64,000 bases of DNA from Candidatus Multivoradales bacterium (GCA_965248925.1 CBDFLE010000006.1:3200001-3264000); one strand, 5' to 3'. Counted from the stretch's first letter, positions 15,549 to 56,635 are shown. A program made the numbers and translations. The notes: generated by a model from the sequence alone, not told the origin.

Positions 15549-15549
15549 C

Positions 15550-16932
15550 TCAGCTTGTGCTCCGTTGATAGGCATCGTGTTGGCGGCGGCGCTCGCTGGT
15601 GAATTCTTCGGCGGTGTCCTCGGCCACTACCTCGTAGAGCAGTGCTCGCTTGTCCTTGGCGCGGCGCAAAATGCGGCCCAGGCGTTGCACATGCTCACGC
15701 ACCGTGCCGCTGCCCGAGAGCACCACGCCGATGTTGGCGGCTGGTATGTCGACCCCCTCGTTGAGCACTCTTGAGGTGACCAGGAAGGGCAGCTCGCCGG
15801 CATTGAAGGCCGCCAAGGTGGCGTGGCGTTCTTTGATCTTGGTCTGGTGAGTGATCGCCGGGATCAAGAAGCGGCGGGAGATCTTGTAGACCGTGGCGTT
15901 GTCGTTGGTGAAGATCAGCATGCGGTCCTGGCGGTGGCGGCTGATCAGCTTCTCCAGCAGTCGCAACTTGGCGCCCGAGGCCTGGGCGATGGCCCGTTGG
16001 CGGCGGTAGGCGAGGAAGGCACGGCGGCCTTCTTCGCTGCGGGAGGTCGCTTGTAGAAACCGCGCCCAGCCTGACGGTCCGCCGAAACGAATCTGATGCT
16101 GTTCGACGAATCCGCGATAGATCTGCCGTTCCTCGCTGTAGGCCTCGCGCTCTTCGTCCGACAGACGGACCCGCACTCTCTCGGTGTCGTACTCCGCCAG
16201 GTAGCTGCCGGCCAGTTCGCCGATTTCGCGACGGTAGACGATCGGCCCTACCAAGTTGTCGAGCAGCCTTTCGCCGCCGTCTTCGCGCTCCGGAGTGGCG
16301 GTCAGACCGAGGCGGAAGGGGGCGATCGACAGCTCGGCGGCGGTGGCGTAGGTCGGTCCCGGCAGGTGGTGGCATTCGTCGAACACCAACAAGGCGAAGC
16401 GGTCGCCGAGTTTGTCCATGTGCAGGTAGGCCGAGTCGTAGGTGGTGACGGTCAGCGGCCGGGGTTCGAAATAGCCGCCACCGATCAGTCCGACTTCGAC
16501 CTCGAAACCGGTCGACAGCACGCCATACCACTGTTGCATCAGGTCGAGGGTGGGAGTGACCACTAGAGCGCAGCAGCCCAAGCGCTCGATGATCAGCTGG
16601 GCGACGTAGGTCTTGCCGGCGCCGGTGGGCAACACCACCACGCCGCAGCGGCCTTCTTGCCACCAGGCCTCCACCGCCTCTTTCTGGTGTGGGAAAGGGG
16701 TGCGTTCGAGACGCGATGCGAGGGCTTGGTCGCTGTAGGCGCGAGCTGCGTTGTCGTACTCCAAGCCCGAGCGATGGAGCGTTCGCACCACCTCGCGGTA
16801 GCGAAAGGCTGGCGCTCGCCACAATCCCACTCGGGAATCCCAAACGCAGCCCGGCGGTCGCAGCTCCGCGGGCGCTTCACCCGCGGTGGGGCGTAGCACG
16901 AGGGTGCCGCGGTCGAACTCCAAGCGAATCAT
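15550..16932 (-). CDS. XPB/Rad25(SSL2)-like superfamily 2 DNA helicase
   Basis: LPTGAGKT, DECHH, GLTAT, EGVDIP and QRLGRILR motifs. Confidence 0.93.
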   Translation of the reverse strand: MIRLEFDRGTLVLRPTAGEAPAELRPPGCVWDSRVGLWRAPAFRYREVVRTLHRSGLEYDNAARAYSDQALASRLERTPFPHQKEAVEAWWQEGRCGVVVLPTGAGKTYVAQLIIERLGCCALVVTPTLDLMQQWYGVLSTGFEVEVGLIGGGYFEPRPLTVTTYDSAYLHMDKLGDRFALLVFDECHHLPGPTYATAAELSIAPFRLGLTATPEREDGGERLLDNLVGPIVYRREIGELAGSYLAEYDTERVRVRLSDEEREAYSEERQIYRGFVEQHQIRFGGPSGWARFLQATSRSEEGRRAFLAYRRQRAIAQASGAKLRLLEKLISRHRQDRMLIFTNDNATVYKISRRFLIPAITHQTKIKERHATLAAFNAGELPFLVTSRVLNEGVDIPAANIGVVLSGSGTVREHVQRLGRILRRAKDKRALLYEVVAEDTAEEFTSERRRQHDAYQRSTS

Positions 16933-41749: not shown

Positions 41750-42402
41750 CAGCCAACCCCCAGGAGTTTGCCCAGGATCCCTTCGACCTGGCGCCAAGTT
41801 GCCCGCAAGCTACCGCTCGAATCTACTCGTAAGATGCGCTCTGGCTCGTCGTTGGCCAGTTCCAGGTAGCGATCCCGTACCCGTTCGTAGAAGTCCAGAA
41901 CCTCGGCATCGAGGCGGTCTACCCCGCCTTGGCGGTCGGGCGCGCTGCTGCGCTCCCGAGCCACCGTCAGGGGCAGGTCGAAAAACAGAGTGAAGTCCGG
42001 CTGCCGGCAATCGGTGGCCAGTCGATCGAGTTCTTCGATCCACCGTCGGTCGAGCCCGCGGCCTTGGCCCTGGTAGGCGTGGGTCGAATCGGTAAAGCGA
42101 TCGCAGAGCACATGCTGGCCGGCATCCAGGGCCGGTTCGATGACTTGCAGCAGGTGCTGGCGACGGCTGGCGAACACCATCAGGGCTTCGACCCGGCCGT
42201 CCAGCTCACCCCAACGGTGGTCGAGAAAAAGGGTGCGGATTTCCTTGCCGAGAGGGGTGCCACCGGGTTCGCGGGTGGTGCGAAAGCCCAAATCGTGGGC
42301 TTTCATCCACTCCCCGGCGCGCTGCAGGTGGGTACTCTTACCGCTGCCATCAAGACCTTCAAAGGTAATGAAGCGGCCGGTGTTAGGTCTCGGGAAATTC
42401 AC
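41749..42402 (-). CDS. tmk: Thymidylate kinase
   Basis: FITFEGLDGSGKST, TREPGGT, CDRFTDST.AYQG. Confidence 0.97.
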   Translation of the reverse strand: MNFPRPNTGRFITFEGLDGSGKSTHLQRAGEWMKAHDLGFRTTREPGGTPLGKEIRTLFLDHRWGELDGRVEALMVFASRRQHLLQVIEPALDAGQHVLCDRFTDSTHAYQGQGRGLDRRWIEELDRLATDCRQPDFTLFFDLPLTVARERSSAPDRQGGVDRLDAEVLDFYERVRDRYLELANDEPERILRVDSSGSLRATWRQVEGILGKLLGVG

Positions 42403-42598
42403 AAGCTATTGAAAACAAGAGACATTCGCAGGGGCGCACGGCGTGCGCCCAGTGGTCCGGTCATCGAAACCGGGCGCATGCCATGCGCCCCTACGCAACC
42501 TCTTGAGGGTACCTGAAAACCAAAATTTTTGTAGGGCGCACGGCGTGCGGCCAGTGGTCCGGTCATCGAAACCGGGCGCATGCCATGCGCCCAGTGGC
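42391..42598. repeat. REP/REPIN-like element, copies 2 and 3 in tandem
   Basis: Two units of GGGCGCACGGCGTGCG.CCAGTGGTCCGGTCATCGAAACCGGGCGCATGCCATGCGCCC at about 42428-42494 and 42531-42592. Confidence 0.8.
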
Positions 42599-43525
42599 TC
42601 AGTGATCGAGGCTGGCTAGCTGAACTGGCACTAGGCGCTCGGCTTGGTAGAGCACTGCATCGATGCCCCGTTCGGCGATCAGCTGCTCGATCTTGCGCAC
42701 CAAGCGAGTGCGTCGCTCTAGCAGGGTGCTGATTTGCAGCGGGCTGAGATAAGGCGACAGCCGAATGCGGACTTGGGCCGGCTCTAAGGCGCGCAAAGCG
42801 TTCCAGAACTGCTCGTCACAGATCTGGATGTTGGCGGCCCAGGGCAGTGCAGGAAGGGTCTTGAAGGTGCGAGTGTGGTCGACGTACCACAGCTTGCCCG
42901 AGGCATCGAAGAGCATGTTGCCGGTGTTGCGGTCGAAATTGTAGATCAGACTGTCGAATAGCGCCAATGCCTGCTTCTGTCGGTGCCAGGAGGCAGGTTT
43001 TTTCGGTTGTTGCTGGTTGGCGATACGGCGGCTTTCGGAGGTAGCGTTTTCGACCCACAGCTGGACCGAACCCCGCTTGCCGCCCAGGGTGCGCAAAGTT
43101 GCTGGCGGCACATTGTCGATGCCTAGCATTTGGCTGAGCTCGAAAGCGGCGACTTCGAAGATATAGCTGTCGCGTAGCTCGCGACGCTGCCGTGGCAAGT
43201 TGCGTTGATTGACTTTGTGATCGACAGTGCGAAAAATTGCGTGGGCGGTGATGCCATCGCGCTGCAAAGTCAGCTTGAGTGGTTTGTTGCTGCCGTCGTT
43301 CAGCTGCTTCTGGGTGATGATTTCGGCGTTGGCGAGAAACTCCACCGCCGCAGCGTTGGAGGTGAAGGGCAGCGGCTGGCCGTCGGCGTCGAGCCAGTTG
43401 GGCTGGGCGGCAGCGGTCGCGGCGCTCAGGGTCAAGATCAGGGTCAAGATCAGGCTATTCAGCAGCCAGCGGGCGGCGCTGGTGGTCCGGGTTTTTATCG
43501 TGGTCGAGAAGGCGAGAGAATGCAT
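42599..43525 (-). CDS. Secreted atypical kinase-fold protein (PI3/4-kinase / Fam20C / HipA-like)
   Basis: Signal peptide ending ATAAA; EVAAFELSQML, VPP, GSVQLW, DSLIYNFDRNTGN, YVDHTRTF. Confidence 0.75.
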   Translation of the reverse strand: MHSLAFSTTIKTRTTSAARWLLNSLILTLILTLSAATAAAQPNWLDADGQPLPFTSNAAAVEFLANAEIITQKQLNDGSNKPLKLTLQRDGITAHAIFRTVDHKVNQRNLPRQRRELRDSYIFEVAAFELSQMLGIDNVPPATLRTLGGKRGSVQLWVENATSESRRIANQQQPKKPASWHRQKQALALFDSLIYNFDRNTGNMLFDASGKLWYVDHTRTFKTLPALPWAANIQICDEQFWNALRALEPAQVRIRLSPYLSPLQISTLLERRTRLVRKIEQLIAERGIDAVLYQAERLVPVQLASLDH

Positions 43526-43710
43526 GATTCAAATCCCCGTCCAAGGTGTGCAGAAGGTGATTCGGCCGCAGCGGGAGTTGCCTCAGGTGAATCTTGCAGG
43601 GCCGAAAGGTCGCCATCAGCGACGTTCAATAGCTAATACGCTCGGTGCGGCAGGTTGTTCGCAAATCCGGGCAAAAAAAGCTCAAGAAGGTGTTGGCCGG
43701 GATAGCCGGT

Positions 43711-44931
43711 TCACCGACTGGGTTGGCCGGTTTGGACCGCTGTTGGAGGTTCGAGCAGCCTTTGTTCGAGGCCGACGTAGATCGCCGTGAAAGTACCGTG
43801 CTCGATCTCCAGAGCCGCTGGCCGGCCACCGGTGTAGACCGACGACAGCATGCCGGTATCGATCAGGAACACCCCGCCGTCGAAGCGGCTACGGATCGAA
43901 CGAGGGCGTTGCGGCGTGTGCCCCACCACCAGATGGCGGATGCCGAGCGCGTCGAGGATACCCGGCAACTCGCTCAGGCCGTGTTGGTCGCTCCAGCGAG
44001 CGTAGCCGCGAAACCACAGTGGCCCATCAGAGCGCACCGTCAACCATTGGTCGATGTCTAGCAAGTGCTGCCAGCCGCTGGCAGAGTCGGCCATCGGCTG
44101 GCCGCTTTTTAGCGCTGCCCGGGCCGCCGCCACCACCTCGCGCGCTGAGGAGGTGGGCAGTACCCGTTGCTGGTCGAGCAACCAAGCGCGGGCGCGGTCC
44201 CAGAGTTCGATCTCTTCGCGCACCTGGCGGTTGATCCGGTCGATGCCGAGGGCGGCCATCGCCGGATTGAGGCCGCCATGCAAGTAGACCACGTCCCCAA
44301 TTTGCACCGCCGCTGGGTGGCCGCGGATCCAGCGACCTAATCTACCCTCGGGGCCGAGCGCCTCGACGTAGTTGAGCAACCCTGGAGGGTGTTCCTCGAG
44401 ACAGCGGGCTCGGGCCTGCTTTTTCGACGGCACTGCCAAGCCCCGCCGTCGGGCGCTCTGCCGGGCGAGTTCGGGGTATGTTCGGCACACCACGGTGCGG
44501 CGCGCCTCAGAGCGTTCGTCGGCAAGTTCGTCGACGATCTCGGGGGTCACATCCCGCAGTTCGCCGATCAGGTTCAAGACCTCGTGATTGCCCAGTAACA
44601 CGATCACTTCGCCGCCGCTGGCCGGTGCTTGGCGTTGCAGGTCCATCAACAACTGGGCGGCGCGCAGGGCGCGGGCTCCGCGGTCGAGGTAGTCGCCGGT
44701 CTGCACCAGGATGGACTCGCCGCCGACCCATCTTTGGCGTCCATCGATCAAGCCGCTCTGGCGCAAGATGGTGACCAAGCCTTCATAGGCCCCGTGGATG
44801 TCGCCGATCGCCACCACCCGCCGCTCGCTAGGCTGAGACTGGGGCCGGATCGAGGTGCCGGTGGCGGCTCCGCTGTGTGGCAGAAGCAACCCGGCGAAGG
44901 CGGTGACTAGCAGGATCCTAGACCACTGCAC
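43711..44931 (-). CDS. Secreted PPP-family metallophosphoesterase (Shewanella-like phosphatase type)
   Basis: GDIHG, GDYLDRG, GNHE, HGG, GHT and IDTG motifs; signal peptide. Confidence 0.9.
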   Translation of the reverse strand: MQWSRILLVTAFAGLLLPHSGAATGTSIRPQSQPSERRVVAIGDIHGAYEGLVTILRQSGLIDGRQRWVGGESILVQTGDYLDRGARALRAAQLLMDLQRQAPASGGEVIVLLGNHEVLNLIGELRDVTPEIVDELADERSEARRTVVCRTYPELARQSARRRGLAVPSKKQARARCLEEHPPGLLNYVEALGPEGRLGRWIRGHPAAVQIGDVVYLHGGLNPAMAALGIDRINRQVREEIELWDRARAWLLDQQRVLPTSSAREVVAAARAALKSGQPMADSASGWQHLLDIDQWLTVRSDGPLWFRGYARWSDQHGLSELPGILDALGIRHLVVGHTPQRPRSIRSRFDGGVFLIDTGMLSSVYTGGRPAALEIEHGTFTAIYVGLEQRLLEPPTAVQTGQPSR

Positions 44932-45364
44932 GGCGCGTTTCTCCGGCCGCCGAAGCCTGGTCTAGTGAGTCTCCCAACAAGCGTCTGAAGAGAGCCTTGA
45001 CGATCTCGATGTTGTTCGACAGCAGGTCGAAAAAGTCGTCGGCGGAGATCTCCAACAGCACCGCGCCGCGGCTGCTGGCGTGCTCTCGGCGCAGCCTGCC
45101 GCTGAGAATCTCGCGCACGCCGAAGCAGTCGTACGTGGAGGCTTGCCGCTCGGCGCCGGTCTCAGCGCTCAGCGTGACCGCCCCTTCGACGATGCAGTAG
45201 AGGGCCTCTGGAGGATCATTGAGGCGATAGATCGAGGCGCCGGGCGGCAGCCGGCGCTGGTGGGCGATGCCGGCCAAACGCATCACCTGCTCGGCGCTGC
45301 AGAAGGCCAGCAAATCCGCTGACTGCAGATGGATGGCCATCTGAATGTGGGTAAGCTGCGACAT
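44918..45364 (-). CDS. Stand-alone cyclic nucleotide-binding domain protein
   Basis: IYRLNDPPEALYCIVEGAV..CFGVREIL..R cNMP barrel; overlaps the phosphatase start by 14 bp. Confidence 0.85.
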   Translation of the reverse strand: MSQLTHIQMAIHLQSADLLAFCSAEQVMRLAGIAHQRRLPPGASIYRLNDPPEALYCIVEGAVTLSAETGAERQASTYDCFGVREILSGRLRREHASSRGAVLLEISADDFFDLLSNNIEIVKALFRRLLGDSLDQASAAGETRRAVV

Positions 45365-45444
45365 TCGAAGTCGCTAGTTTATCAGCCTATCGAAGAGGGC
45401 GAGGGGTGGGGAGATTGGCGGCCGCAGCAGCCCAGCGGCGGCGG

Positions 45445-46110
45445 TTAGCGCCGGGCGGCAGTTGGCAAATAACTCGGCAAGGGTACCTCCGGGTCGAGGT
45501 CGGGAGCTGGCTGGGGTGTGCCGAAAACCAGGTCCAGCGGCAAGACCCCGCTCCAGTAGCCCAGCTGCAGATCCGACGCCTTGTCTTTTGGCGGTCCGCT
45601 GCGGACTTTGGCCGAAGCCTCCTCGATCGGTAATTCCAGCACCGTTGTGGCGGCGATTTCTTGCTCGCTAGCGGGTCGGGAATCGGCGCTCCGTCCGGCC
45701 AGCACGTGCTCTACGAAACCTGTCAGCGCACGGCTTTTCTCCGCCGGGTCGAGCAGCGGCCGGGCGCGTCCGAAGAGCATCACCGAGCGGTAGTTCATCG
45801 AGTGGTGGAATTGCGATCGCGCCAACACCAGGCCGTCGAGCAGGGTGACGGTGATACAGATTTCGATGCCCTCGCCAAGCTCGCGCATCATCCGGCTGGC
45901 GATCGAGCCGTGCAAGATCAGGCGATCCCCAGAGCGACCGTAGGCGGTGGGAATGACGAAAGGCTTGCCGTTGACGACGAAGCCGGCGTGGCACACCAAG
46001 CCCTGATCGAGAATGTCGTAGATCTGCTGGCGCCGATGGCTGCCGCGTCCTGGCTGGCTCCGTGGAGTGGTTCGTTGGGTAATTGGCAGCGAGGCGTTTG
46101 GGGTGCTCAT
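45445..46110 (-). CDS. Pyridoxamine 5'-phosphate oxidase-like flavin-binding protein
   Basis: CHAGF, PFVIPT, HGS.ASRMM, HHSMNYRSV, SAKVRSGPP. Confidence 0.9.
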   Translation of the reverse strand: MSTPNASLPITQRTTPRSQPGRGSHRRQQIYDILDQGLVCHAGFVVNGKPFVIPTAYGRSGDRLILHGSIASRMMRELGEGIEICITVTLLDGLVLARSQFHHSMNYRSVMLFGRARPLLDPAEKSRALTGFVEHVLAGRSADSRPASEQEIAATTVLELPIEEASAKVRSGPPKDKASDLQLGYWSGVLPLDLVFGTPQPAPDLDPEVPLPSYLPTAARR

Positions 46111-46131
46111 GGGGGTATCTTCTTCGCTCAA

Positions 46132-46176
46132 TTGGTTCTAGTGAAGATCCAATTCAGCATAAAATGACAGAACCAA
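46132..46176. promoter_or_regulatory. Inverted repeat, probable MocR/PdxR operator in the divergent intergenic region
   Basis: TTGGTTCT (46132-46139) and AGAACCAA (46169-46176). Confidence 0.55.
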
Positions 46177-46194
46177 AAAGGAGCCATCGCCACC

Positions 46195-47646
46195 ATGTCT
46201 TGGATCTCTAGCCTCAGTACCGAGCCCCTGCATCGCCAGCTCTACTATTCCCTGCGCCAGGCTATCTTGGCGGGTGGATTCGAACGCGGTTGCCGCCTGC
46301 CGGCGAGTCGGGCGCTGGCCGAAGAGCAGGGAGTGTCGCGCAACGTGGTGCTAGCGGCCTACGATCAATTGCAAGCGGAGGGCTACTTGCAGGCCCGTCA
46401 AGGGGCCGGGACCTTCGTCGCTCCGGTGCTGCCCGAGGAACTCTTGCGGGCGGCCGTCGGCGATTTTGGGCCACCGCCTGGTCGGCCACCGACGCCGCGG
46501 CTGTCGAGCTACGCTCGGCGCGCCTTGGCCGAGGGTATCGTCGAGCCTGAAGGAGCTTCCGCTCCGCCGTGTGATTTTCGCTATGGCGTGCCGGCGGTCG
46601 ATGCTCAGACCTTGGAGGTGTGGCGGCGCTGTGTCGCCCGCCAATCGCGCCGCCCGGATCTAGGCTATGCACCGCCGGCCGGCCATCCGGGTCTCAGGCG
46701 GTCCTTGGCGGCTTATTTGCGTCGCTGCCGCGGTGTTGACTGCCAGCCATCGCAAGTGCTGATCACCAACGGTTCCCAACAGGCTCTCGATTTGGTGGTG
46801 CGGGCGTTGGTCGATCCTGGCGACGTGGTGGCGATCGAAGATCCTTGCTACCTCGGCATTCGCCGGGTGCTCGCTGCTCAGGGCTGTGTTCTACGGCCGG
46901 CGCGGGTGGATGGAAGAGGACTCGATCCCGAGTCCATCGACCCGCGGGCGCGGTTGGTCTACGTCACCCCGTCCCACCAGTTTCCCAGTGGCGCGGTGAT
47001 GCCCGTCGACCGTCGTTTGGCGTTGCTAGATTGGGCGGCGCGAAGCGGCGGCTGGGTTCTAGAGGACGACTACGACAGCGAGTTCCGCTACCGCGGCCGG
47101 CCGCTGGCGGCTTTGCAGGGACTCGATCGGCAGGCGCGAACTCTCTATGTTGGCACCTTTTCGAAAGTACTTTACCCGGCATTGCGGCTCGGCTTCCTGG
47201 TGGTGCCGCCACAGTTGCTGGCGGTTTTCGAGGCGCTCAAGTGGCTGGCCGATCGGCACACCCCGATGCTGCTGCAGGCGGCCCTTGCCGACCTGTTGGA
47301 CCAGGGCCACTACGAGCGCCACTTACGCCGGGCGCGGGCGACTAGCGCGGCGCGGTTGAAGGTGTTGTTGGCGGCCCTTGACCAGCAATTTGGTGAGCGC
47401 ATTGAGATCGAGGGTGCCGATGCCGGGGTACACCTGGTCTTGTGGCTGCGTGATCTGGCGCCGGAGCAGCTGCCCGAGCGCATCGCCAGAGCGCGGCAAG
47501 CCGGACTGGGGATCTACCCGATCGCGCCTTACTACTGGCGGCCCCCCGATCGCGCCGGACTGTTGATCGGCTGGGCTTCCCTCGATGAGCCGACCTTGCG
47601 GGAGGGCGTGGCTCGCCTGGCCGAGGTGCTATCGTCGAGCGGATGA
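46195..47646 (+). CDS. MocR/GabR-family PLP-dependent GntR regulator
   Basis: RLPASRALA..GVSRNVV HTH; TPSHQFP, EDDYDSEF, GTFSK..PALRLG. Confidence 0.95.
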   Translation: MSWISSLSTEPLHRQLYYSLRQAILAGGFERGCRLPASRALAEEQGVSRNVVLAAYDQLQAEGYLQARQGAGTFVAPVLPEELLRAAVGDFGPPPGRPPTPRLSSYARRALAEGIVEPEGASAPPCDFRYGVPAVDAQTLEVWRRCVARQSRRPDLGYAPPAGHPGLRRSLAAYLRRCRGVDCQPSQVLITNGSQQALDLVVRALVDPGDVVAIEDPCYLGIRRVLAAQGCVLRPARVDGRGLDPESIDPRARLVYVTPSHQFPSGAVMPVDRRLALLDWAARSGGWVLEDDYDSEFRYRGRPLAALQGLDRQARTLYVGTFSKVLYPALRLGFLVVPPQLLAVFEALKWLADRHTPMLLQAALADLLDQGHYERHLRRARATSAARLKVLLAALDQQFGERIEIEGADAGVHLVLWLRDLAPEQLPERIARARQAGLGIYPIAPYYWRPPDRAGLLIGWASLDEPTLREGVARLAEVLSSSG

Positions 47647-48107
47647 GCGAAATCAAGAACATCCGTTTCATGCTCCGTTTGGCTTACCAGAGTGACGAAG
47701 CCTGGCATGGCCCGTCCTTGCGCGCAGTGCTCAACGGGGTTGACGCTGGCCAAGCCCAAGCGCGCCCCATCGCTGGGGCTCACTCCATCTTCGAGCTGGT
47801 GCATCACATCACCTTTGAGCGCCAGCGGGTTGCCGCTGCCATTGCCGCCGAGACCTTCGCTGACTGTGTTGTAGACGAAGCAGCATTCCCCGCCGACCCG
47901 ACGGTCGACGAAGATGCTTGGCAAGCAGCTTTGTCCGACCTCGAGGCTAGCCAGAAGCGGCTGATCAAAGAGCTGCGCCGCTTTCCCGACGAGCGTTTGC
48001 AGGAGAAAGTGCCGGGTCGGGACTACAGCTTCTACTTCGTGCTGCACGGCATCCTCCACCACGATATTTACCACACCGGCCAGATCGCGTTGCTGAAGAA
48101 GGGCTGA
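47643..48107 (+). CDS. DinB/YfiT-family protein
   Basis: WHGPSL, HSIFELVHHI, HDIYHTGQI. Confidence 0.9.
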   Translation: MSEIKNIRFMLRLAYQSDEAWHGPSLRAVLNGVDAGQAQARPIAGAHSIFELVHHITFERQRVAAAIAAETFADCVVDEAAFPADPTVDEDAWQAALSDLEASQKRLIKELRRFPDERLQEKVPGRDYSFYFVLHGILHHDIYHTGQIALLKKG

Positions 48108-48118
48108 GCAGCGAAACC

Positions 48119-49267
48119 GTGACCACCAGCAAACAGCACCAGCGTCGAGCCTTTCAGGAGCGGAGCCGCGCCTTTGCCCAAGCTGCCGGTGGCGGCGATC
48201 TGCCGCTGATGCGCGCCCTGATCGCTGAAGATCGCCGGGTCTTGATCCCGGACACCTCACTTTTGGAGGGGTGTTTGCGCGGCCAGGTCGAGGCGGTGCG
48301 ACTGATTCTCGACGAGGGCGTGTCGCCAGATCCGCCGCCGGGCAAAGATGGCAACCAGAGCCGTCGGGCGATCACCCGAGTGGTTCGCCGCACCAAGGCG
48401 GTGCGTTGGACGCCGCGTCACCGTGAGGTGCTCGAACTGCTGCTCGAACGAGGCGCCTCGATCCACGCTTTGCCGGGTTGGGACGGCGCTTCCGGGCTTT
48501 CGGCCGCAGCTTCGGCAGCCAATCGTCAGGCAATCGAGGTGCTGCGCCGCCACGATCCGCAGCCGTTGGATCTGTTCGATGCCGCAGCCCTGGCCGATCT
48601 CGGCCGGGTCGAAGAGTTGCTAGCGAAGAGCCCATCGGCGGCCACTGAAGTGTCGACCGGCGGAGCGACCGCGTTGCAATACTGCGCCCACTCGGCGCTC
48701 GGCACCGACAAGGTGACCGACGCGGCGAATTTGATCGCCATTGCCGAGCGCCTGCTCGACCTCGGAGCGCCCCTCGATCCAGTCGAGCTGGGTCCGCAGA
48801 CGACCTACCCGGCGGTCTACCTGGCCTGCTACTCCGGCAATGACGAGGTGGCCGGGGTTCTGCTGCGGCGTGGCGCCGAGCCGGGCTACGTGTTGCTGCG
48901 GGCCTTGGTGGCTGGGCGGTCGAGGGTTCTCGAACAGCTGGCGAAGCGCCGGCCAGAACTCGACCTCGACCTGCCGATGGAGGATCGGCGGCGCAGCCCG
49001 CTGGTGGTCGATATGGTGCGCAGCGGCCAGCTGCGATCGGCTAGATGGTTGGTTGAACAGGGTGCCGATCTGACGGCCAGCGATAGCGAGGGCAGCACCG
49101 CCTTGCATCTTGCGGCCCAGCGGGGCGCGGCAAGCGATTTTCTGACCCTGCTGATCGAGCATAGCGCGCCGCTCGGGGCAGTGGACGCCGCGGGCCGCTC
49201 TCCCCTCGATCTGGCGCTGCGGCGGCGCCAAGGGCCGGCGGTCGAATTGCTCCGGTCTCTGGCCTGA
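48119..49267 (+). CDS. Ankyrin repeat protein
   Basis: GATALQY, GSTALHLAA, GRSPLDLA and L..GA repeats. Confidence 0.88.
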   Translation: MTTSKQHQRRAFQERSRAFAQAAGGGDLPLMRALIAEDRRVLIPDTSLLEGCLRGQVEAVRLILDEGVSPDPPPGKDGNQSRRAITRVVRRTKAVRWTPRHREVLELLLERGASIHALPGWDGASGLSAAASAANRQAIEVLRRHDPQPLDLFDAAALADLGRVEELLAKSPSAATEVSTGGATALQYCAHSALGTDKVTDAANLIAIAERLLDLGAPLDPVELGPQTTYPAVYLACYSGNDEVAGVLLRRGAEPGYVLLRALVAGRSRVLEQLAKRRPELDLDLPMEDRRRSPLVVDMVRSGQLRSARWLVEQGADLTASDSEGSTALHLAAQRGAASDFLTLLIEHSAPLGAVDAAGRSPLDLALRRRQGPAVELLRSLA

Positions 49268-49273
49268 GATGAT

Positions 49274-52129
49274 CTAGCGGCTCGCGATCCGTTGGAGCAG
49301 CAGGTCGGTGGTCTCGCGCACCATTGGGTCGGGCTCGCCCTCGGCGGCTCGATGGATCAACTCAAACAGCGATTCGTGTTGGCGATCAACAATGAAGTGC
49401 AATGCGGCGGCACTCCACCAGGCGGCGTCGGCGTCGCCCACCGGGCGCTGCCACACCAGGCGTTCCAAGGTCTTGCGCAGCGATTCGGCGCGCAGACTGA
49501 ATTCTCGCTCCGCTCGGCGGTGACGTTCGTGCCGCGGCAGGTCGTCGATCACCGTCAGCACCTGCAGGCGGGCTGCGCCACGCAGCGTATTGTCGAGGTA
49601 CTCCAGGGCATGGCAGCGCAACCTGGGCTGAGCACAGACCAAGGCTTGGTGGGCGGCGCGAATGTCCTTGGGGTCGCCGAGCAGAGCGAGCAGGCCGAAA
49701 AGATTGTCGAAGTGGTCGTTCATGCGGTCGGCGAGGAGTCGTTCGAGCAGATGGGGGCCGGCACTATCAGAGGTTCGCGGCCAGGTCACCACCGGGCCGT
49801 TCAGCGGCAGCTCGCTACCGGAGATCGATTCGAGGTCAAGAAGGCGCCGCAGATAAGAGCGAGCTTCGATCTTGAGTTGCATCTCTAACAACTCGTCGGG
49901 TTGCCCCAGCTCGCCTTTGGGCAGCGCCCCCAGAGCTTCGATCAACTTGCGACGCAGAAATGGATCAGTGGCTGAAAAAGAGCGGCAGAGAGTGTCTGCC
50001 GCCGCCGCGCCGCCGATCTGTGCCACCGTCTTGGGTAGTGCCCGGCGTACCCAAATCTCCTCGTGGCTGTCGTTGAGGAAGTGCTCCAACGCCGGCAGGA
50101 TGGTCGGGCCGTAGGCTACCAGGGCGGCGCGCGAACTGTGTTTTAGCTGCCGCTGGTGCAGATGGGAGGTCAGGATCGGCACGTAGAGGGGATTGCGGGC
50201 GCCCCGCTCGACGCGCTTCGAAACGGCGTCGATAGCAGCCAGCACCACTGTCGGTTCGGCGTCATAGAGAAGTTGCACCAAGCCGGCTTGGACATGTGGA
50301 TCGTCGAGGCTACCCAGGGCGTCGGCTGCCGCCTGGCGGATTCCACTGTTGCCGTCGCCGAGCATCTCGCGGAGGGCTGAATCGGCCAGTTGGCGGCTCA
50401 GCGGATCGGGCTGGCTGGCCAGATAGGCGAGGGCCGCGGCGCGCACTCGTACGTCGCCATCGCGCAGCCGCTCCCGCATCAGGGCGCGAGCATCTTCGGC
50501 GGCCAGGTCGGCGAGGACTTGAGTGGCGGTGGCGCGCACCGTCGGGTCGCCGTCGCCCAGCAGACGTTCGATCAGTGGCAGAGCGTCGCGGCGCTCGGCA
50601 TCGCGTAGCACTAGTAGGGTTCGGCGGCGCACCGCGGGGTCTGGATGGTGCAGCATCAGTGGGGTGACCAACTGGCCGCGACCGTGCGCGGCGAGCAGTT
50701 CCAGGCTGTGCAGCACGCGGCGCGACTCGCTGCTGCCAAGGCCCTCGACCAGCACTTCAAGGGTTGCGGAGTCGGTCAGGTCAAGGTCGGCCGGCCGAGT
50801 TTTGGGAGCTGTTGGCAGGCCCTCGCGAAACAGTTGAACGTAGCGCCGCCGCAGGGGCCCTAGTAGCGCCAACCAAGCAGCGATCCACAGCAGGCTGAGC
50901 CAGGCGGTAGCTTCGATCGACAACCAACCGAAGGTGACAGCGAGCAGTGCGACGGCGGCCGCGCCCTTGGCGAATCGTTGCACAAAGACGTCGATGAACG
51001 CCTTGGCCCGAGCGCGGCCGGCCTCCGGGAGGGGCATGAAGAGCAGCTCTCGGGTTGCTTGATCGAGGGAGTAGCGCAGGCCGTTCTCGGAGATCTTCAG
51101 CCACCACACCGCGGGTAGGACCAGGGTAGGAGCCACCAGCGCGGCGCAGATCAAGAAGATAGTGCCAAGGCCGTTGGATAAAGGCAGAACATAGAGTGCC
51201 AGGCGAACTCCGTGCCGGCGATGCATCAGCCCGGTCAGCAGCAGTTGGCAGAGCAGGGCGGCAATTCCGGTCAGGCTGTAAAGGTTGCCGAAGGCCGCGG
51301 TGCGCTGGTCGAGGTTGCTGGTGCTGGTCTCGATCACCCAGGAGAGTTGTAGATCGATCACCTGTGCGACCATTGTCGCCAGCAGCACCAATCCGGCGAG
51401 TAGCCGCAGATAGGAGGAGTGGCGCAGCAAAGCAAGGCCGCTGCGGGCCTCGGCGAGGCTGTCGCTAGAGGGTTGCGCTGGCGGCGTGGTGGGGCGCTTC
51501 TCGGGCTGGCGAATAGACCAGGCGCACGCCGCCGCGGCCAACAACCAAGCGATGGCGACCCAGAGGGCCGAACGGGTGTCGAGCAGGGCACTGGTCCAGC
51601 GTGCCATTTGACCGCCGACGATGCCGCCCAGAATGCCCCCAGCACCAATTGCCCCGAACAGCCTCCGTGCCTGTCGCGGGTCGAGCAGCAGACCGGCCCA
51701 GCACCACAGCTGGCTGACCAGCAACAGGCCGACGATGGCGATCCACAGGTAGAAAAGCAAGCTAGGCCACTGGCTGTCGAGTCCCAGCGCCCACCAGAAG
51801 AAGACCAGACCGGCGGCCACTCCCAGGCTCGAACCGAGCAGCAGCCGGCGCGGGCCGAAGCTCTCTGGTGAACGTGTGTAGAGTCGTAACAGGGGATAGG
51901 AGCACAGCGCCGCCAAGAGATAGACCCAGGGCAACTGGGCCGCTCCCAGGGAGTCGACAAAAGTAGCTTGACGGACCGACTTGGCGACGTATTGGAAGCT
52001 CAACAAGCAGAAGTGGAGAGCGAAGAGGCGCCACAGCAGACGCCGCTCGTCAGTGCGAACGTCGAGCTTTAGCCAGCCGAGCCAGCCGCTTGATGGATGG
52101 CTGTGGGGCGATGGTTTGGGTGGAGGCAT
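49274..52129 (-). CDS. Npt1/Npt2 (TLC) nucleotide transporter-like MFS domain fused to HEAT repeats
   Basis: About 12 TMs with AKSVRQATF, PRQARRLFG, RYSLDQATRELLF, RAKAFIDVFVQR; then D..VR..A HEAT repeats. Confidence 0.85.
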   Translation of the reverse strand: MPPPKPSPHSHPSSGWLGWLKLDVRTDERRLLWRLFALHFCLLSFQYVAKSVRQATFVDSLGAAQLPWVYLLAALCSYPLLRLYTRSPESFGPRRLLLGSSLGVAAGLVFFWWALGLDSQWPSLLFYLWIAIVGLLLVSQLWCWAGLLLDPRQARRLFGAIGAGGILGGIVGGQMARWTSALLDTRSALWVAIAWLLAAAACAWSIRQPEKRPTTPPAQPSSDSLAEARSGLALLRHSSYLRLLAGLVLLATMVAQVIDLQLSWVIETSTSNLDQRTAAFGNLYSLTGIAALLCQLLLTGLMHRRHGVRLALYVLPLSNGLGTIFLICAALVAPTLVLPAVWWLKISENGLRYSLDQATRELLFMPLPEAGRARAKAFIDVFVQRFAKGAAAVALLAVTFGWLSIEATAWLSLLWIAAWLALLGPLRRRYVQLFREGLPTAPKTRPADLDLTDSATLEVLVEGLGSSESRRVLHSLELLAAHGRGQLVTPLMLHHPDPAVRRRTLLVLRDAERRDALPLIERLLGDGDPTVRATATQVLADLAAEDARALMRERLRDGDVRVRAAALAYLASQPDPLSRQLADSALREMLGDGNSGIRQAAADALGSLDDPHVQAGLVQLLYDAEPTVVLAAIDAVSKRVERGARNPLYVPILTSHLHQRQLKHSSRAALVAYGPTILPALEHFLNDSHEEIWVRRALPKTVAQIGGAAAADTLCRSFSATDPFLRRKLIEALGALPKGELGQPDELLEMQLKIEARSYLRRLLDLESISGSELPLNGPVVTWPRTSDSAGPHLLERLLADRMNDHFDNLFGLLALLGDPKDIRAAHQALVCAQPRLRCHALEYLDNTLRGAARLQVLTVIDDLPRHERHRRAEREFSLRAESLRKTLERLVWQRPVGDADAAWWSAAALHFIVDRQHESLFELIHRAAEGEPDPMVRETTDLLLQRIASR

Positions 52130-52346
52130 TTTCTGCTGCAGCTTATCGAGCCAGGCTGGTTCGGTCGCTGATGGAACTACGCGCCAAGTCGCTCGGCGTT
52201 GCGTCGCATAGGTGGTGGCGAGGTAAAAGGTGACTTTCCGATTCAGGTATCAGTCAACTAGGTTGTCAGGAATTCACCTTTTCGTCAGGTAGCATGGGAC
52301 TCCCTTCCCGGTTAGTCGAGTATGTCGTAGGCAAGGAGAATCGACG

Positions 52347-53279
52347 ATGAGTTTGTTGCTGGAGATTTTTGTTTGTCTACTGATCGCGGCGCTCCTGGGC
52401 GGCATCATCGGCTGGTTGCTGCGCAGTTTGAACGCCCGGCGCCAGGTTGAGGAGACCGAGGCCGAGTGGCAGGAGAGGCTGGGAGTGGTGGAAGAAGAGA
52501 GTCGCTCTTTGCGCACCGAACTCAGCGAGCAGATGGCGCGCAGCAAGTTGCTGGACAGCGATCTCTCCACCGCCGACGAGCGGCTCGCTTCGATCGACGG
52601 AGAGCTAGAGGCGGCGCGAGCCGAGACCGAGCAAGAGAAGCAGCGCTGTAGCGATCACCGAGCCAATCTATCCCAGCTCGAAAGCGAGTGGAAAAGCAAA
52701 CTCGGCAAGCTGACATCAACTCGCGAAGAAGCGGTCACCGAACTCGCCGAGCATGCCGCCCTGCTGGGCAAGTTGCGGGCAGATCTGGCGGATCGGGCGG
52801 GCCTGTTGGAGAGGTTGCGCCAAGAGTTGCGCTCGAAAGACGAAAAGCTCGGCCTGCAATCCGGTCAATTGGTCGAGCTGCGGGCTGATTTGGCGGGAGC
52901 CTCGAGCCAAGACCCCTCCGCGGATGGCGAAGTGGCTCGCTTAAGCTCGGCACTCCAGGCTCGGGAGACTCGCCTCGGTGAGCTTGAGATCGCCTTGGCC
53001 GAGTGCCGCAGACAACATGAGACCGCCGAGATCGAGGTGCCGTTGGCCAAATACGGCCTCACCGCGCCACCGGCCGATGGGATCGATGATCTGAAACGTA
53101 TTCGGGGTATCGGCAAGGTACTAGAGAAGATGCTGCTCGGACTGGGGATCTACAAGTTCCGCCAAATCGCAGCTTGGAATGAGCAGGATATCGAAGTGGT
53201 CTCGGATCGGCTCAACGCCTTCCACGGTCGCATCAGCCGCGATGGCTGGGTCGACCAGGCGCGGCAGTTGATCGACTGA
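52347..53279 (+). CDS. Membrane-anchored coiled-coil protein with a C-terminal helix-hairpin-helix domain
   Basis: N-terminal TM, long heptad region, DDLKRIRGIG...QIAAW...RDGWVDQA. Confidence 0.8.
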   Translation: MSLLLEIFVCLLIAALLGGIIGWLLRSLNARRQVEETEAEWQERLGVVEEESRSLRTELSEQMARSKLLDSDLSTADERLASIDGELEAARAETEQEKQRCSDHRANLSQLESEWKSKLGKLTSTREEAVTELAEHAALLGKLRADLADRAGLLERLRQELRSKDEKLGLQSGQLVELRADLAGASSQDPSADGEVARLSSALQARETRLGELEIALAECRRQHETAEIEVPLAKYGLTAPPADGIDDLKRIRGIGKVLEKMLLGLGIYKFRQIAAWNEQDIEVVSDRLNAFHGRISRDGWVDQARQLID

Positions 53280-54017: not shown

Positions 54018-54587
54018 ATGATGCGAGACGAAGCCCAACTGATCGAACGTGCCCAGGCGGGCGACCCGAACGCATTTCGCCAGCTGGTGGAGGCACACAG
54101 CCGAGATACCTTTCGCTTGGCTTTTCGCCTCAGGGGTGATCATGCGTTGGCCGACGACATCGTCCAGGACAGTTTCCTCAAGGCCTACCGGGCGCTCGCC
54201 CGTTTCGATGCTCGCAGTCGTTTTGGCACCTGGCTGCACCGCATCACAGCCAACTGCGCCATGGATCAGTCGCGCCGCCGGCAGCGTGAGAAGGCCCGCT
54301 ACCAGCCGCTCGAAGACCCGTCGCAGCACCTCCCAGTTGAAGCCGAGCCCGGGCCCGAGAGGCGTGCTCGCAGCAACGAGATCCAACAGCGGGTGGAGGC
54401 GGCATTGGCCGGGCTCAGTCCGGCGGAGCGTACCGCCTTTGTGCTGCGCCACTACGAGAACCAGTCGATCGCTCAGATCAGCCACACCTTGGGTGCCGGT
54501 GTCAGCGCTACCAAACACGCTGTTTTCAGGGCGGTCAAGAAACTACGCCGTGAACTCGGACCGCTGCGGGAGCAAGGCTATGCATGA
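54018..54587 (+). CDS. ECF RNA polymerase sigma factor
   Basis: GDPNAFRQLV, ADDIVQDSF, FGTWLHRI, region 4 KHAVFRA. Confidence 0.93.
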   Translation: MMRDEAQLIERAQAGDPNAFRQLVEAHSRDTFRLAFRLRGDHALADDIVQDSFLKAYRALARFDARSRFGTWLHRITANCAMDQSRRRQREKARYQPLEDPSQHLPVEAEPGPERRARSNEIQQRVEAALAGLSPAERTAFVLRHYENQSIAQISHTLGAGVSATKHAVFRAVKKLRRELGPLREQGYA

Positions 54588-55380
54588 GATTTCCGAAGAA
54601 GATCTGATTCTGTACTACTTCGGCGAGGCTGAAGACATGGCAGGCATCGAGCATCGTTTGCGCCAGTCGGGGGCGGATCGGGCGCGTTTTGAGGAATTGC
54701 GTCAGTTGCTCGAAACGACTCGCGAAGTGGCCGTGCCTGAACCGCCGCCGGATTACGGCGAGCATCTGTGGCAGAGGATCCAACCGCGCCTGGCCGAGCT
54801 CGAGCCGCAGCCCTGGTGGCAGGGCCAGCGCCGCCCGCGGCGCACCATCCAGCCCGTAAGGCAGCGCTGGATGGGTCTGGTGGCAGCCGTGGTGGTGGTC
54901 GCCGTGGCAGCTTTCTGGCTCGGTCGCCAGCTGGGCCCGACGCCCCTCGGGACTGAGCCCAGCATGGAGAGCGGTGCCGCTCAGGCTATCTTGGTGGCCG
55001 CACTGGTGGAGCATCTGGAGAGTTCCAGCCGCCTGCTCGTCGAACTAAGTAATAGCGCCGCGGACTTTGGCGGGCGAGATCTTGGGGTCGCCATCGAGCG
55101 CGCCGACGATCTACTGGCCGAAAACCGGCTCTACCGGCTGGCTAGTAGCGATCAGGCCAGCGCCGGCCTAATAACTCTGCTCGATGCTCTCGAACGCCTT
55201 TTGCTCGACCTCCGCCACGCCTCGGCGGTGGATCCAGCGCGGACTCTAGAACACCTCCGCCAGCGTATCGACAGCGAAGACCTACTTTTCAAGCTGCGAG
55301 TGAGCAGCGCCCGATTGAGCCCCTCCACGGTTCGCTTTTCCCAAGGAAAAAAGTCGGCTACATCTAAAGCCGATGTCTAG
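54580..55380 (+). CDS. Putative anti-sigma factor (one TM)
   Basis: Overlaps the sigma stop; N-terminal anti-sigma helices, TM, NRLYR helical periplasmic part. Confidence 0.8.
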   Translation: MHEISEEDLILYYFGEAEDMAGIEHRLRQSGADRARFEELRQLLETTREVAVPEPPPDYGEHLWQRIQPRLAELEPQPWWQGQRRPRRTIQPVRQRWMGLVAAVVVVAVAAFWLGRQLGPTPLGTEPSMESGAAQAILVAALVEHLESSSRLLVELSNSAADFGGRDLGVAIERADDLLAENRLYRLASSDQASAGLITLLDALERLLLDLRHASAVDPARTLEHLRQRIDSEDLLFKLRVSSARLSPSTVRFSQGKKSATSKADV

Positions 55381-55396
55381 ATAGGAGATAGGAACG

Positions 55397-56635
55397 ATGA
55401 AAAGAAACTACTCTCAACGCTTTGGGTCGATGATGTCCATCGGCTTAGTCTTGAGCATCTTCGGGCTTGCCCTGCCTATTCTGGCATTGAGTGAAGAAGG
55501 TCTGGCTGCCGATACAGAAGCTCGTTCTGACGACCTCTACCGTGCCGGTCGCGACGCTCTCGAGGCCGGTGAGTGGCAGTCGGCAGTCGGCCTCTTCAGC
55601 AAGGTTGAAGAGAGCGGCAGCCATGCCGACGCGGCGCTTTACTGGATCGCCTATGCGCAACATCAAGGGGGTCGCGAGGAGCAAGCCCTGCGGACTCTCG
55701 ATCGCTTGCGCGAAAAGTCCCCCCAAAGCCGCTGGCTCGACGACGCCGAAGCGTTGGAAGTTGAATTGCGCGGCGTCGGCGAGGGGACAATCGATCCCGA
55801 TATCTTCGACGGCGACGAACTCAAGTTGTTGGCGCTCAACAGCCTGATGCATACCGATTCCGAGCGCGCCCTCGATCTACTCACCGGCATGCTCGAAGGT
55901 GATCATTCGCCGCAGCTCAAGGAACGCGCTCTTTTCGTGCTCAGTCAGAATTCATCGTCTCGGGCGACCAAGCTTTTGGCCCAGATCGCCACCGGCGGTG
56001 TCCATGGTGGGTTGAAAACCCAGGCGGTGCGAATGTTGGGGATCAGCGGCGGCGGTCGCGCGATCGAGCTGTTGCAGCAGATCTATCGCGACACGGCCGA
56101 CCCTGAAGTGCGGCGGGCAGTGCTCGAGAGCTACATGATCGCTGGTGCGGGGAAGGCGCTGGCTGTTGTAGCGCGTAGCGAGAAGAACCTCCAACTACGC
56201 CAACAAGCTATCCGTCTACTCGGTGCGAACGGCGATATGGGCTTGCTGGGTGAGCTCTGGTCCAATGACGCACCGGCGCCGATTCGGCAGTCGATTCTCG
56301 AAGGAATGATGATCGCTGGAGACCACGCTGGCTTGGTCAAGGTTGCTCTTCGCGAGTCCGATCCGGAGCTGCGTCGACACGCGATCGAGCTTCTCGGCGC
56401 GGTCGGAGGCAGTGAAGTCAGCGCTGCTCTGAGCCGCCTCTATCGGCAGAACACCGACCTCGAGACCCGCCGCGCGGTGATGCGGAGTTGGATGATCAGC
56501 GATGATGCCGAATCCCTGGTCAAGGTGGCCCGGAGCGAGCAGGATCCACAGCTGAAGCGCCAGGCGGTCGAGCTTCTGTCGGTGATGGATCAGCCGGAGG
56601 CTCGCGACTATATGTTGGAGCTGCTGGGGCAATGA
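55397..56635 (+). CDS. Secreted TPR plus HEAT repeat protein
   Basis: Signal peptide; ADAALYWIAYA TPR; repeated P.L...A...L HEAT units. Confidence 0.85.
   Translation: MKRNYSQRFGSMMSIGLVLSIFGLALPILALSEEGLAADTEARSDDLYRAGRDALEAGEWQSAVGLFSKVEESGSHADAALYWIAYAQHQGGREEQALRTLDRLREKSPQSRWLDDAEALEVELRGVGEGTIDPDIFDGDELKLLALNSLMHTDSERALDLLTGMLEGDHSPQLKERALFVLSQNSSSRATKLLAQIATGGVHGGLKTQAVRMLGISGGGRAIELLQQIYRDTADPEVRRAVLESYMIAGAGKALAVVARSEKNLQLRQQAIRLLGANGDMGLLGELWSNDAPAPIRQSILEGMMIAGDHAGLVKVALRESDPELRRHAIELLGAVGGSEVSAALSRLYRQNTDLETRRAVMRSWMISDDAESLVKVARSEQDPQLKRQAVELLSVMDQPEARDYMLELLGQ

Follow-up and report, generated by a model that had tools for sequence, protein, structure and literature searches.

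The Fam20 kinases (PF06702; the Golgi casein kinase Fam20C, Fam20A and the xylosylkinase Fam20B) work in a compartment that must receive its ATP through a transporter. The bacterial periplasm is commonly regarded as lacking ATP, and to our knowledge no ATP-dependent protein kinase system with a nucleotide supply of its own is known there; none was found in the literature searched. That literature covered bacterial relatives of Fam20, transporter-fed periplasmic kinases and the function of NTT-HEAT proteins, and it held no description of the gene set reported here, in agreement with the first-pass annotation of this DNA, which knew of no characterised bacterial system of such composition. The gene set lies in a stretch of 64,000 nucleotides (nt) from Candidatus Multivoradales bacterium (GCA_965248925.1 CBDFLE010000006.1:3200001-3264000), referred to below as the window. 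It encodes an NTT-HEAT carrier, a small protein with the cyclic nucleotide monophosphate (cNMP) binding fold, a PPP-family metallophosphatase and a Fam20-like kinase-fold protein, the last two predicted to be exported. With a probability that is put at about one half, the four genes represent a conserved envelope module, here in dispersed form, in which export of ATP feeds the exported kinase.

A survey of the Legionella kinome calls the FAM20 cluster specific to eukaryotes or to Metazoa (PMC9758233, in its accessible text), and a 2025 review names CotH as a bacterial relative of Fam20C (PMC12189002, likewise in its accessible text). NTT-HEAT and NTT-HEAT-cNBD proteins (cNBD, cyclic nucleotide-binding domain) are described as monophyletic, widespread in bacteria and uncharacterised (Major, Embley & Williams 2017, PMC5381601). 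The accessible portions of that paper leave the function of NTT-HEAT proteins open and propose a cAMP-tuned uptake of ATP; within those portions the word "kinase" is absent, "phosphatase" appears only for PP2A, and no linkage to exported enzymes is given. The carrier of the window resembles this clade, as there described, in having an NTT domain that is followed by HEAT repeats. The clade has its cNBD gene adjoining or fused to the carrier, however, whereas the cNBD gene of the window is 3.9 kb away from the carrier and is neither directly downstream nor fused. Both arrangements of the clade are met in related loci, with the cNBD adjacent in two of them (L100 and L109) and fused in three (L050, L067 and L082).

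The four genes recur together in other genomes. A scan of species-representative genomes gave 398 stretches with a relative of the kinase, and the best 80 of these were used, with up to 10 kb on each side. The 80 kinase loci come from 71 assemblies (counted by record prefix), all from genomes other than that of the window, and nearly all are from Acidobacteriota; one record is labelled Latescibacterota and one Gemmatimonadota. By tblastn with the window proteins, the phosphatase turns up in 37 of the 80 loci and the cNMP gene in nine. The carrier gives matches in 32 loci, those in L111 and in L073 (located at the end of a contig) being partial. In the 35 loci that have full 10-kb flanks, the carrier is found in 20, the phosphatase in 23 and both in 20. 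Thus the conserved linkage of kinase, phosphatase and NTT-HEAT carrier, whose absence the first-pass annotation had named as evidence against its proposal, is present. Clustering of 970 neighbour open reading frames (ORFs) shows no further gene family in more than six of the 80 loci, with the limit that the greedy ORF caller sometimes took antisense frames and may have overlooked weak recurrences.

The set stays together in at least five different gene orders. The order carrier, cNMP, phosphatase and kinase, contiguous and on one strand, is found in L100 and L109. In L050, L067 and L082 the kinase is divergent from a row of carrier, cNMP and phosphatase, and here NTT-HEAT carries the cNMP domain at its C-terminus as a fusion. 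Six loci have the order phosphatase, kinase, carrier, and in many the kinase is convergent on the carrier, with the phosphatase beyond it on the carrier strand. Three loci (L032, L033 and L070) show cNMP, phosphatase and kinase with no carrier within 10 kb; the genomes of these three have an NTT-HEAT protein, 50-54% identical, encoded on another contig. Linked arrangements occur in several separate clades of a quick kinase tree.

Fusion joins two of the genes more closely still. Thirteen of the 17 co-directional phosphatase-kinase pairs are a single ORF of about 700 amino acids (aa) with a single N-terminal leader (Pfam was run on three). An exhaustive profile search of 1.84 billion cluster representatives gave 990 members of the kinase family at E<=1e-30 and 3045 at E<=1e-10. 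Among the best 150 of the 990 representatives, 47 are at least 500 aa long, and 39 of these 47 display an N-terminal Metallophos domain.

Four loci (L047, L052, L055 and L064) each contain two kinase copies from different clades: one is fused to the phosphatase and lies upstream of the carrier, the other is free and convergent with the carrier.

In the window the L100/L109 row, taken as the ancestral one, is half dispersed, with 3.9 kb of unrelated genes dividing it. It is read in this way because the row is contiguous in L100 and L109 and because each of the four intervening genes (PNPOx-like, GntR/aminotransferase, DinB and ankyrin) is found in 0 of the 80 kinase loci by tblastn. The first-pass annotation had placed the four genes in one row; the order and the strand were right, but the carrier is parted from the other three genes and the four are not contiguous. 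The carrier is a transcription unit separate from the cNMP-phosphatase-kinase trio, because the four intervening genes lie between it and the cNMP gene. Downstream of the window kinase are tmk, holB and a DsbA-like gene; tmk and holB are found in two of the 80 loci each, and L033 has both in common with the window. A kinase-tmk-holB order as in the window is also displayed by L059 (10148-12245), with no phosphatase or cNMP gene within 10 kb upstream, and the L059 kinase groups with the window kinase in the quick tree.

Co-occurrence was counted in an even sample of 401 genomes of the phylum (3-5 candidates scored per genome; related genomes are not independent). The kinase family is present in 102 genomes, a TLC-family gene in 155 (and in 0 of 14 control genomes) and a phosphatase relative (E<=1e-20) in 95. 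A TLC gene is found in 101 of the 102 kinase genomes, the exception being G369, an assembly that is 92% complete and in 380 contigs. The kinase is present in 92 of the 95 phosphatase genomes, and 10 kinase genomes have no phosphatase at E<=1e-20. The distribution is asymmetric, in that the kinase is almost never found without the carrier but the carrier is often found without the kinase. Such an asymmetry would be predicted if the enzyme depended on the carrier.

It might be argued that the genes are neighbours by chance, or through shared regulation alone, without a common function. The window itself can be taken in this sense, with its carrier 3.9 kb off, across four unrelated genes and in another transcription unit, as can the many solitary kinase paralogues (neither partner is present in 41 of the 80 loci). 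The fusions, the linkage that is rearranged yet retained and the co-occurrence in 101 of 102 genomes leave this explanation close to refuted.

Homologues of the window kinase in databases are unnamed or "hypothetical" and are from Acidobacteriota, Thermoanaerobaculia and Holophagales, and matches in the ESM Atlas are only "hypothetical protein" clusters of Acidobacteriota. Pfam gives PI3_PI4_kinase only, at 19.7 bits and below the 27.1 cut-off. The best named sequence family is NCBIfam TIGR03843 (the SCO1664 family, uncharacterised PI3/4-kinase-like hypothetical proteins of actinobacteria), with an E-value of 5.1e-18 at residues 65-278; at 65.3 bits against a cut-off of 172.4, the window kinase is by its score not a member of that family. 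Five of the 47 long relatives show weak PF06702 matches, and only P0124 is above the cut-off (29.4 versus 26.8 bits). P0124 is a protein of 671 aa with two kinase domains in tandem.

Sequence profiles and structure both point to Fam20. An alignment of 30 homologues displays invariant blocks (NFDRNxGN, IDHTRxF, an FEVAAxE helix and an AxFR strand), and its profile, searched against all PDB sequences, matches FAM20A (E 5.1e-11) and FAM20C (1.2e-7), and next a Fam20B-type xylosylkinase (3.1e-6), C. elegans Fam20 (2.1e-3) and PI4KII-alpha (PI4K2A, 0.021). An AlphaFold2 model of the window kinase (pLDDT 87.1, pTM 0.81) has top Foldseek matches that are all Fam20 (E 4.6e-10, query TM-score 0.62). 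With VIA-align the model gives Z 21.5 and a root mean square deviation (rmsd) of 3.2 A over 234 residues to hydra Fam20 (a xylosylkinase), Z 20.2 to human Fam20C and Z 19.4 to Fam20A; the Fam20 entries range over Z 18.9-21.5 and rmsd 3.1-3.7 A over 227-242 residues. Other proteins of the same fold all score below the Fam20 entries, namely PI4KII (Z 17-18), Helicobacter CtkA (15.4), actin-fragmin kinase (12.7), HipA/HipT (about 11) and MavQ (10.8). The first-pass annotation had set the protein beside Fam20C, PI4K2 and HipA, and Fam20 comes first in both the profile and the fold searches; filing it under the PI3/PI4 kinases or HipA was rejected, since the Fam20 entries score higher in both. CotH is absent from the profile search at E<=1 and from the fold-search matches listed, which does not contradict a relationship.

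The window protein is thus Fam20-like, but not a member of the Pfam Fam20C family. Both the bacterial and the Fam20 proteins are exported or luminal, in the bacterial case by prediction, and the catalytic Asp, the metal-binding Asp and the ion-pair Glu align. The two differ in that identity is only 13-20%, the window kinase is below the Pfam cut-off, and the bacterial protein (about 260 residues) is without the Fam20 insertions and is often fused to a phosphatase.

Residues with assigned roles in Fam20C are the ion pair K285-E311, E306, the catalytic D458 and the metal-binding D478 (Cui et al. 2015, PMC4421793, in its accessible text). In a HMMER alignment with Fam20C, D198 of the window kinase corresponds to D458, D216 to D478, E124 to E311 and R99 to K285. 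The Fam20-specific E306 falls in a two-residue gap of this alignment, directly after D304, and D304 aligns with the invariant D119. Conservation was counted over 262 kinase domains from 260 proteins: D119 is Asp in 262 of 262, D198 and D216 are each Asp in 261, N203 is Asn in 259 and E124 is Glu in 236. The position of R99 is Arg in 232 domains, His in 22 and Lys in five. Judged by these residues, the catalytic centre looks alive and the nucleotide-binding ion pair looks atypical.

The replaced ion-pair residue can be used to argue for a different function, in which the carrier imports nucleotides as in parasites and the cell's own ATP stays inside. The exported enzymes would then only sense substrates from outside or make them ready, and the kinase-fold protein would serve for binding or be a pseudokinase. 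A pseudokinase that binds ATP is already known in Fam20A (Cui et al. 2015, PMC4421793, accessible text), and the characterised NTTs import nucleotides (Major et al. 2017, accessible text). The near invariance of D119, D198, N203 and D216 is however what an active enzyme would be expected to show. In addition, free-living bacteria make their own ATP, and one would not expect a binding protein to come fused to a phosphatase. We consider this explanation quite improbable.

The fold also bears on what the kinase may phosphorylate. Fam20B phosphorylates xylose and PI4KII phosphorylates a lipid. The same module in the same compartment could therefore modify a glycan, a lipid or a small molecule of the envelope, or carry out another nucleotide-dependent transfer such as AMPylation. 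In favor of this are the best structural match, which is the hydra xylosylkinase, the closeness of the PI4KII lipid kinases, the Arg or His that replaces the ion-pair Lys in 254 of 262 domains and suggests an atypical binding of the nucleotide, and the lack of a conserved protein-substrate gene near the 80 loci. On the other hand Fam20C and Fam20A are within about 1-2 Z units of the xylosylkinase, a fold cannot separate substrate classes, and the nearest match of the partner phosphatase is a protein-tyrosine phosphatase of the PPP type (E 1.2e-29). A target of this kind appears somewhat unlikely.

The window phosphatase displays a Metallophos domain (Pfam, E 4.5e-12), and its translation shows the motifs GDIHG, GDYLDRG, GNHE, LHGG and VGHTP. 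It is closely similar to the Shewanella cold-active protein-tyrosine phosphatase (1v73, 2z72 and 2zbm), with E-values from 1.2e-29 (1v73) to 4.4e-29, and it shares the PPP motifs with that enzyme. Proteins of this type are named Shelph and have an IDTG-type motif at the C-terminus. Unlike the Shewanella phosphatase, the window phosphatase is encoded with a kinase domain, to which its relatives are fused elsewhere, and it is linked to a carrier. Signal-peptide-type N-termini had been claimed for both enzymes, and leaders are found to be conserved in both families. Each of the two window enzymes starts with a leader that is positively charged at first and hydrophobic thereafter. Ahead of the conserved core, such a leader is seen in 29 of 30 kinase homologues, and in 32 of 37 phosphatase homologues a hydrophobic leader is upstream of GDxHG (hydropathy in both cases). 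The leader of the window kinase ends ...AATAAAQ/P.

Weak NCBIfam matches of the phosphatase are to an ApaH-type tetraphosphatase (E 8e-5) and to protein phosphatases. The former, together with the inclusion of ApaH among PPP relatives, raises the possibility that the module handles nucleotides for their own sake. The carrier would move ATP, Ap4A, NAD or a cyclic nucleotide, and the exported enzymes would convert it rather than use it as fuel, for scavenging, for signalling or for an ADP-to-AMP recycling such as that by Golgi nucleoside diphosphatases. The phosphatase is linked to the carrier as tightly as is the kinase, and some members of the carrier family transport other nucleotides (Major et al. 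2017, accessible text). The kinase nevertheless has nearly invariant catalytic Asp, Asn and Asp residues, and macromolecules or lipids are what its relatives phosphorylate. A kinase outside of the cytoplasm would moreover still need a donor, so that this explanation also implies nucleotide export. It is clearly an unlikely one.

The carrier is composed of a TLC/MFS membrane domain of about 430 N-terminal residues and about 520 C-terminal residues of HEAT repeats. Pfam places TLC (PF03219, 36.3 bits versus a cut-off of 21) and MFS_1 at residues 57-428, and HEAT_2 (E 1.1e-26) from about residue 490 on. Relatives of the carrier in the kinase loci have TLC scores of 74-79 bits. NCBIfam TIGR00769 matches the carrier with an E-value of 1.8e-10, a match that stays below the cut-off of that model. 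The membrane domain is similar to the solved plastid ADP/ATP carrier (9j3j, E 7.3e-9; 9j3n, E 4.4e-6; residues 117-431), and a stretch common to the two reads RYSL...RELLFMPLPE...AKAFIDV. Hydropathy shows ten clear membrane segments; visual reading of the loops at 50-95 and 299-322 adds two probable ones. Lys and Arg are abundant at the N-terminus, in the central loop and in the segment after the membrane domain. This pattern fits an N-in/C-in topology, by which both ends of the membrane domain, and hence the HEAT tail, would be cytoplasmic.

The cNMP-fold protein (PF00027, 40.8 bits versus a cut-off of 27.5) has the MloK1 cNBD as its best solved relative (E 2.5e-6). It is without a leader and is therefore presumably cytoplasmic. 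Eight orthologues of its gene sit in kinase loci. When these eight and the window protein are aligned with MloK1, the Glu of the phosphate-binding cassette is replaced by Val or Ala in nine of nine; the cassette Arg is retained in seven of nine (His in two), and a Ser or Thr follows it in three. The canonical pattern is Gly-Glu and Arg-Ser/Thr-Ala. The cassette is thus degenerate, and binding of cAMP or cGMP is uncertain because the canonical Glu is missing in all nine.

A contact between this protein and the HEAT tail is likely, because natural fusions of cNMP and NTT-HEAT exist. Prediction of a complex between the tail (residues 440-951) and the cNMP protein gave a score of 0.56, the best of three controls being 0.00; at least 85% of the contacts are common to the runs, with a partner pLDDT of 81 or more. 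The prediction lends weak support to the contact. The same mark is reached by 58 of 80 solved complexes and by two of 110 mismatched pairs, and only seven of those 80 complexes, together with both passing mismatches, are at scores of 0.60 or less.

Taken together, these features suggest the following scheme. The NTT-HEAT protein would be located in the inner membrane, regulated from the cytoplasm by its HEAT tail together with the cNMP-fold protein, and the Shelph-type phosphatase and Fam20-like kinase would be exported by their N-terminal leaders. The carrier, as an antiporter of the ATP/ADP-translocase family, would release cytoplasmic ATP or another nucleoside triphosphate in exchange for ADP, and the released nucleotide would be the phosphate donor for the exported kinase in a compartment that otherwise has none. 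The phosphatase would take off the same phosphate or clear the nucleotide product, and the two enzymes would write and erase phosphate on envelope targets. Release of ATP is proposed because an exported kinase-type enzyme needs a donor and the linked gene belongs to an ATP/ADP antiporter family. Antiport of this kind is reversible and follows gradients, and in a free-living cell the ATP gradient is outward. That both enzymes are exported and that the HEAT tail is cytoplasmic is inferred, as are the compound that the carrier moves, the direction of its transport, the chemistry of the kinase and the class of substrate (protein, glycan or lipid).

The first-pass annotation had proposed an ATP-exporting carrier, gated by a cyclic nucleotide, that powers a kinase/phosphatase pair. 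What this predicts at the genomic level, in linkage, fold and leaders, is found; the single-row layout was wrong. The stronger statement, that reversible and regulated ATP-dependent phosphorylation takes place in the periplasm of free-living diderm bacteria by means of a sensor-controlled ATP/ADP antiporter, which sends ATP out and brings ADP back for the exported enzyme pair, and that the Golgi Fam20 kinases of animals share ancestry with the bacterial family, is offered tentatively and is somewhat doubtful. It would make secretory-pathway phosphorylation with its own ATP supply a prokaryotic invention.

Several points weigh against the feeding of an exported kinase by ATP export. The TLC score of the window carrier is low, and its substrate is not readable from sequence. 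The window kinase has no PF06702 match at E<=0.01 in Pfam, and ATP-dependent phosphotransfer is not assured since Arg or His replaces the ion-pair Lys. Export of the enzymes is judged by hydropathy, the leader test being a heuristic (a hydrophobic 12-mer with a Kyte-Doolittle value of at least 1.8). A TLC gene is present in 54 of 299 genomes that have no kinase (a count that includes the unpublished genome G049), and NTT-HEAT proteins are widespread in other bacteria, so the carrier has a role that does not need the kinase. In the window the carrier is not co-transcribed with the enzymes, and one of the gene orders is represented by 16 loci within a single clade of 21 rows, relatives that are not independent. 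By our own reasoning, ATP in the periplasm could leak through porins, and a kinase that is fused to the phosphatase reversing it looks futile unless the two are reciprocally regulated.

If ATP export does feed the kinase, the module would mean that a major phylum of soil bacteria regulates its envelope at an additional, new level, and it would give the uncharacterised, widespread NTT-HEAT carriers a first functional context. It would also provide bacterial relatives for the metazoan Fam20 kinases. What the window adds is a minimal example of the module that is partly dispersed and for the most part single-copy, the counts over the phylum, the Lys-to-Arg/His replacement in the kinase and the degenerate cassette of the cNMP-fold protein. 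The genome (7.98 Mb, 6 contigs) has one copy of the kinase, one TLC-family gene and one phosphatase match at E<=1e-20, and would thus be a simple case for genetics and biochemistry.

The four ORFs and the genes between them are listed in Table 1. The four minus-strand genes described in the first-pass annotation were all recovered with their domains. The overlap that it noted between the phosphatase and cNMP genes amounts to 14 nt, from the phosphatase start (GTG at 44931) to the stop of the cNMP gene. The third-position GC of the four ORFs is 0.76-0.82, like that of other genes in the window.

Table 1. Genes of the proposed module and the genes between them (window coordinates)
Feature	Position	Strand	Remarks
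Fam20-like kinase-fold protein, predicted exported	42599-43525	-	308 aa; profile and fold searches
PPP-family (Shelph-like) metallophosphatase, predicted exported	43711-44931	-	406 aa; GTG start; Metallophos
Stand-alone cNMP-binding-fold protein	44918-45364	-	148 aa; Pfam PF00027
PNPOx-like gene	45445-46131	-	Pfam; not part of module
GntR-aminotransferase (MocR-type) regulator	46195-47646	+	Pfam; not part of module
DinB-family gene	47643-48107	+	Pfam; not part of module
Ankyrin-repeat gene	48119-49267	+	382 aa; Pfam; not part of module
NTT-HEAT carrier	49274-52129	-	951 aa; Pfam TLC, MFS_1, HEAT_2

The intervening genes occupy 45445-49267, three of them on the plus strand. The PNPOx-like gene is divergent from the GntR-aminotransferase gene, behind which are the DinB-family and then the ankyrin gene. 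The ankyrin and carrier genes are convergent, with their stops 6 nt apart. A scan of 42300-52500 for promoters and terminators gave numbers expected of shuffled sequence (2 versus 1.3 and 9 versus 7.1, respectively), and no RNA runs are listed among the four sequencing-run holders, all of one study. In the rest of the window (44 further ORFs, Pfam) there is no Omp85 barrel and no second TLC gene.

Other loci of the window have features of their own. Divergent from the carrier gene is an ORF (52347-53279) that encodes a 310-aa coiled-coil protein, found in 0 of the 80 related loci. Over roughly its final 70-100 residues this protein matches models of NuoE, L21, S2 and phasin PhaH, in each case at their C-terminal tail. 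At 54049-56635 a 443-aa protein with a weak anti-sigma match is followed by a TPR plus HEAT-repeat protein, the latter being another HEAT protein, at a distance of 3 kb from the carrier. A CpeT/CpcT-family (bilin lyase-like) protein is encoded at 62-1105, in what is a non-cyanobacterial genome. At 14334-16932 the gene of an XPB/ERCC3-type helicase that includes a damage-recognition domain is followed directly by that of a DUF790 protein (E 3.1e-96); the arrangement suggests a pair of helicase and nuclease.

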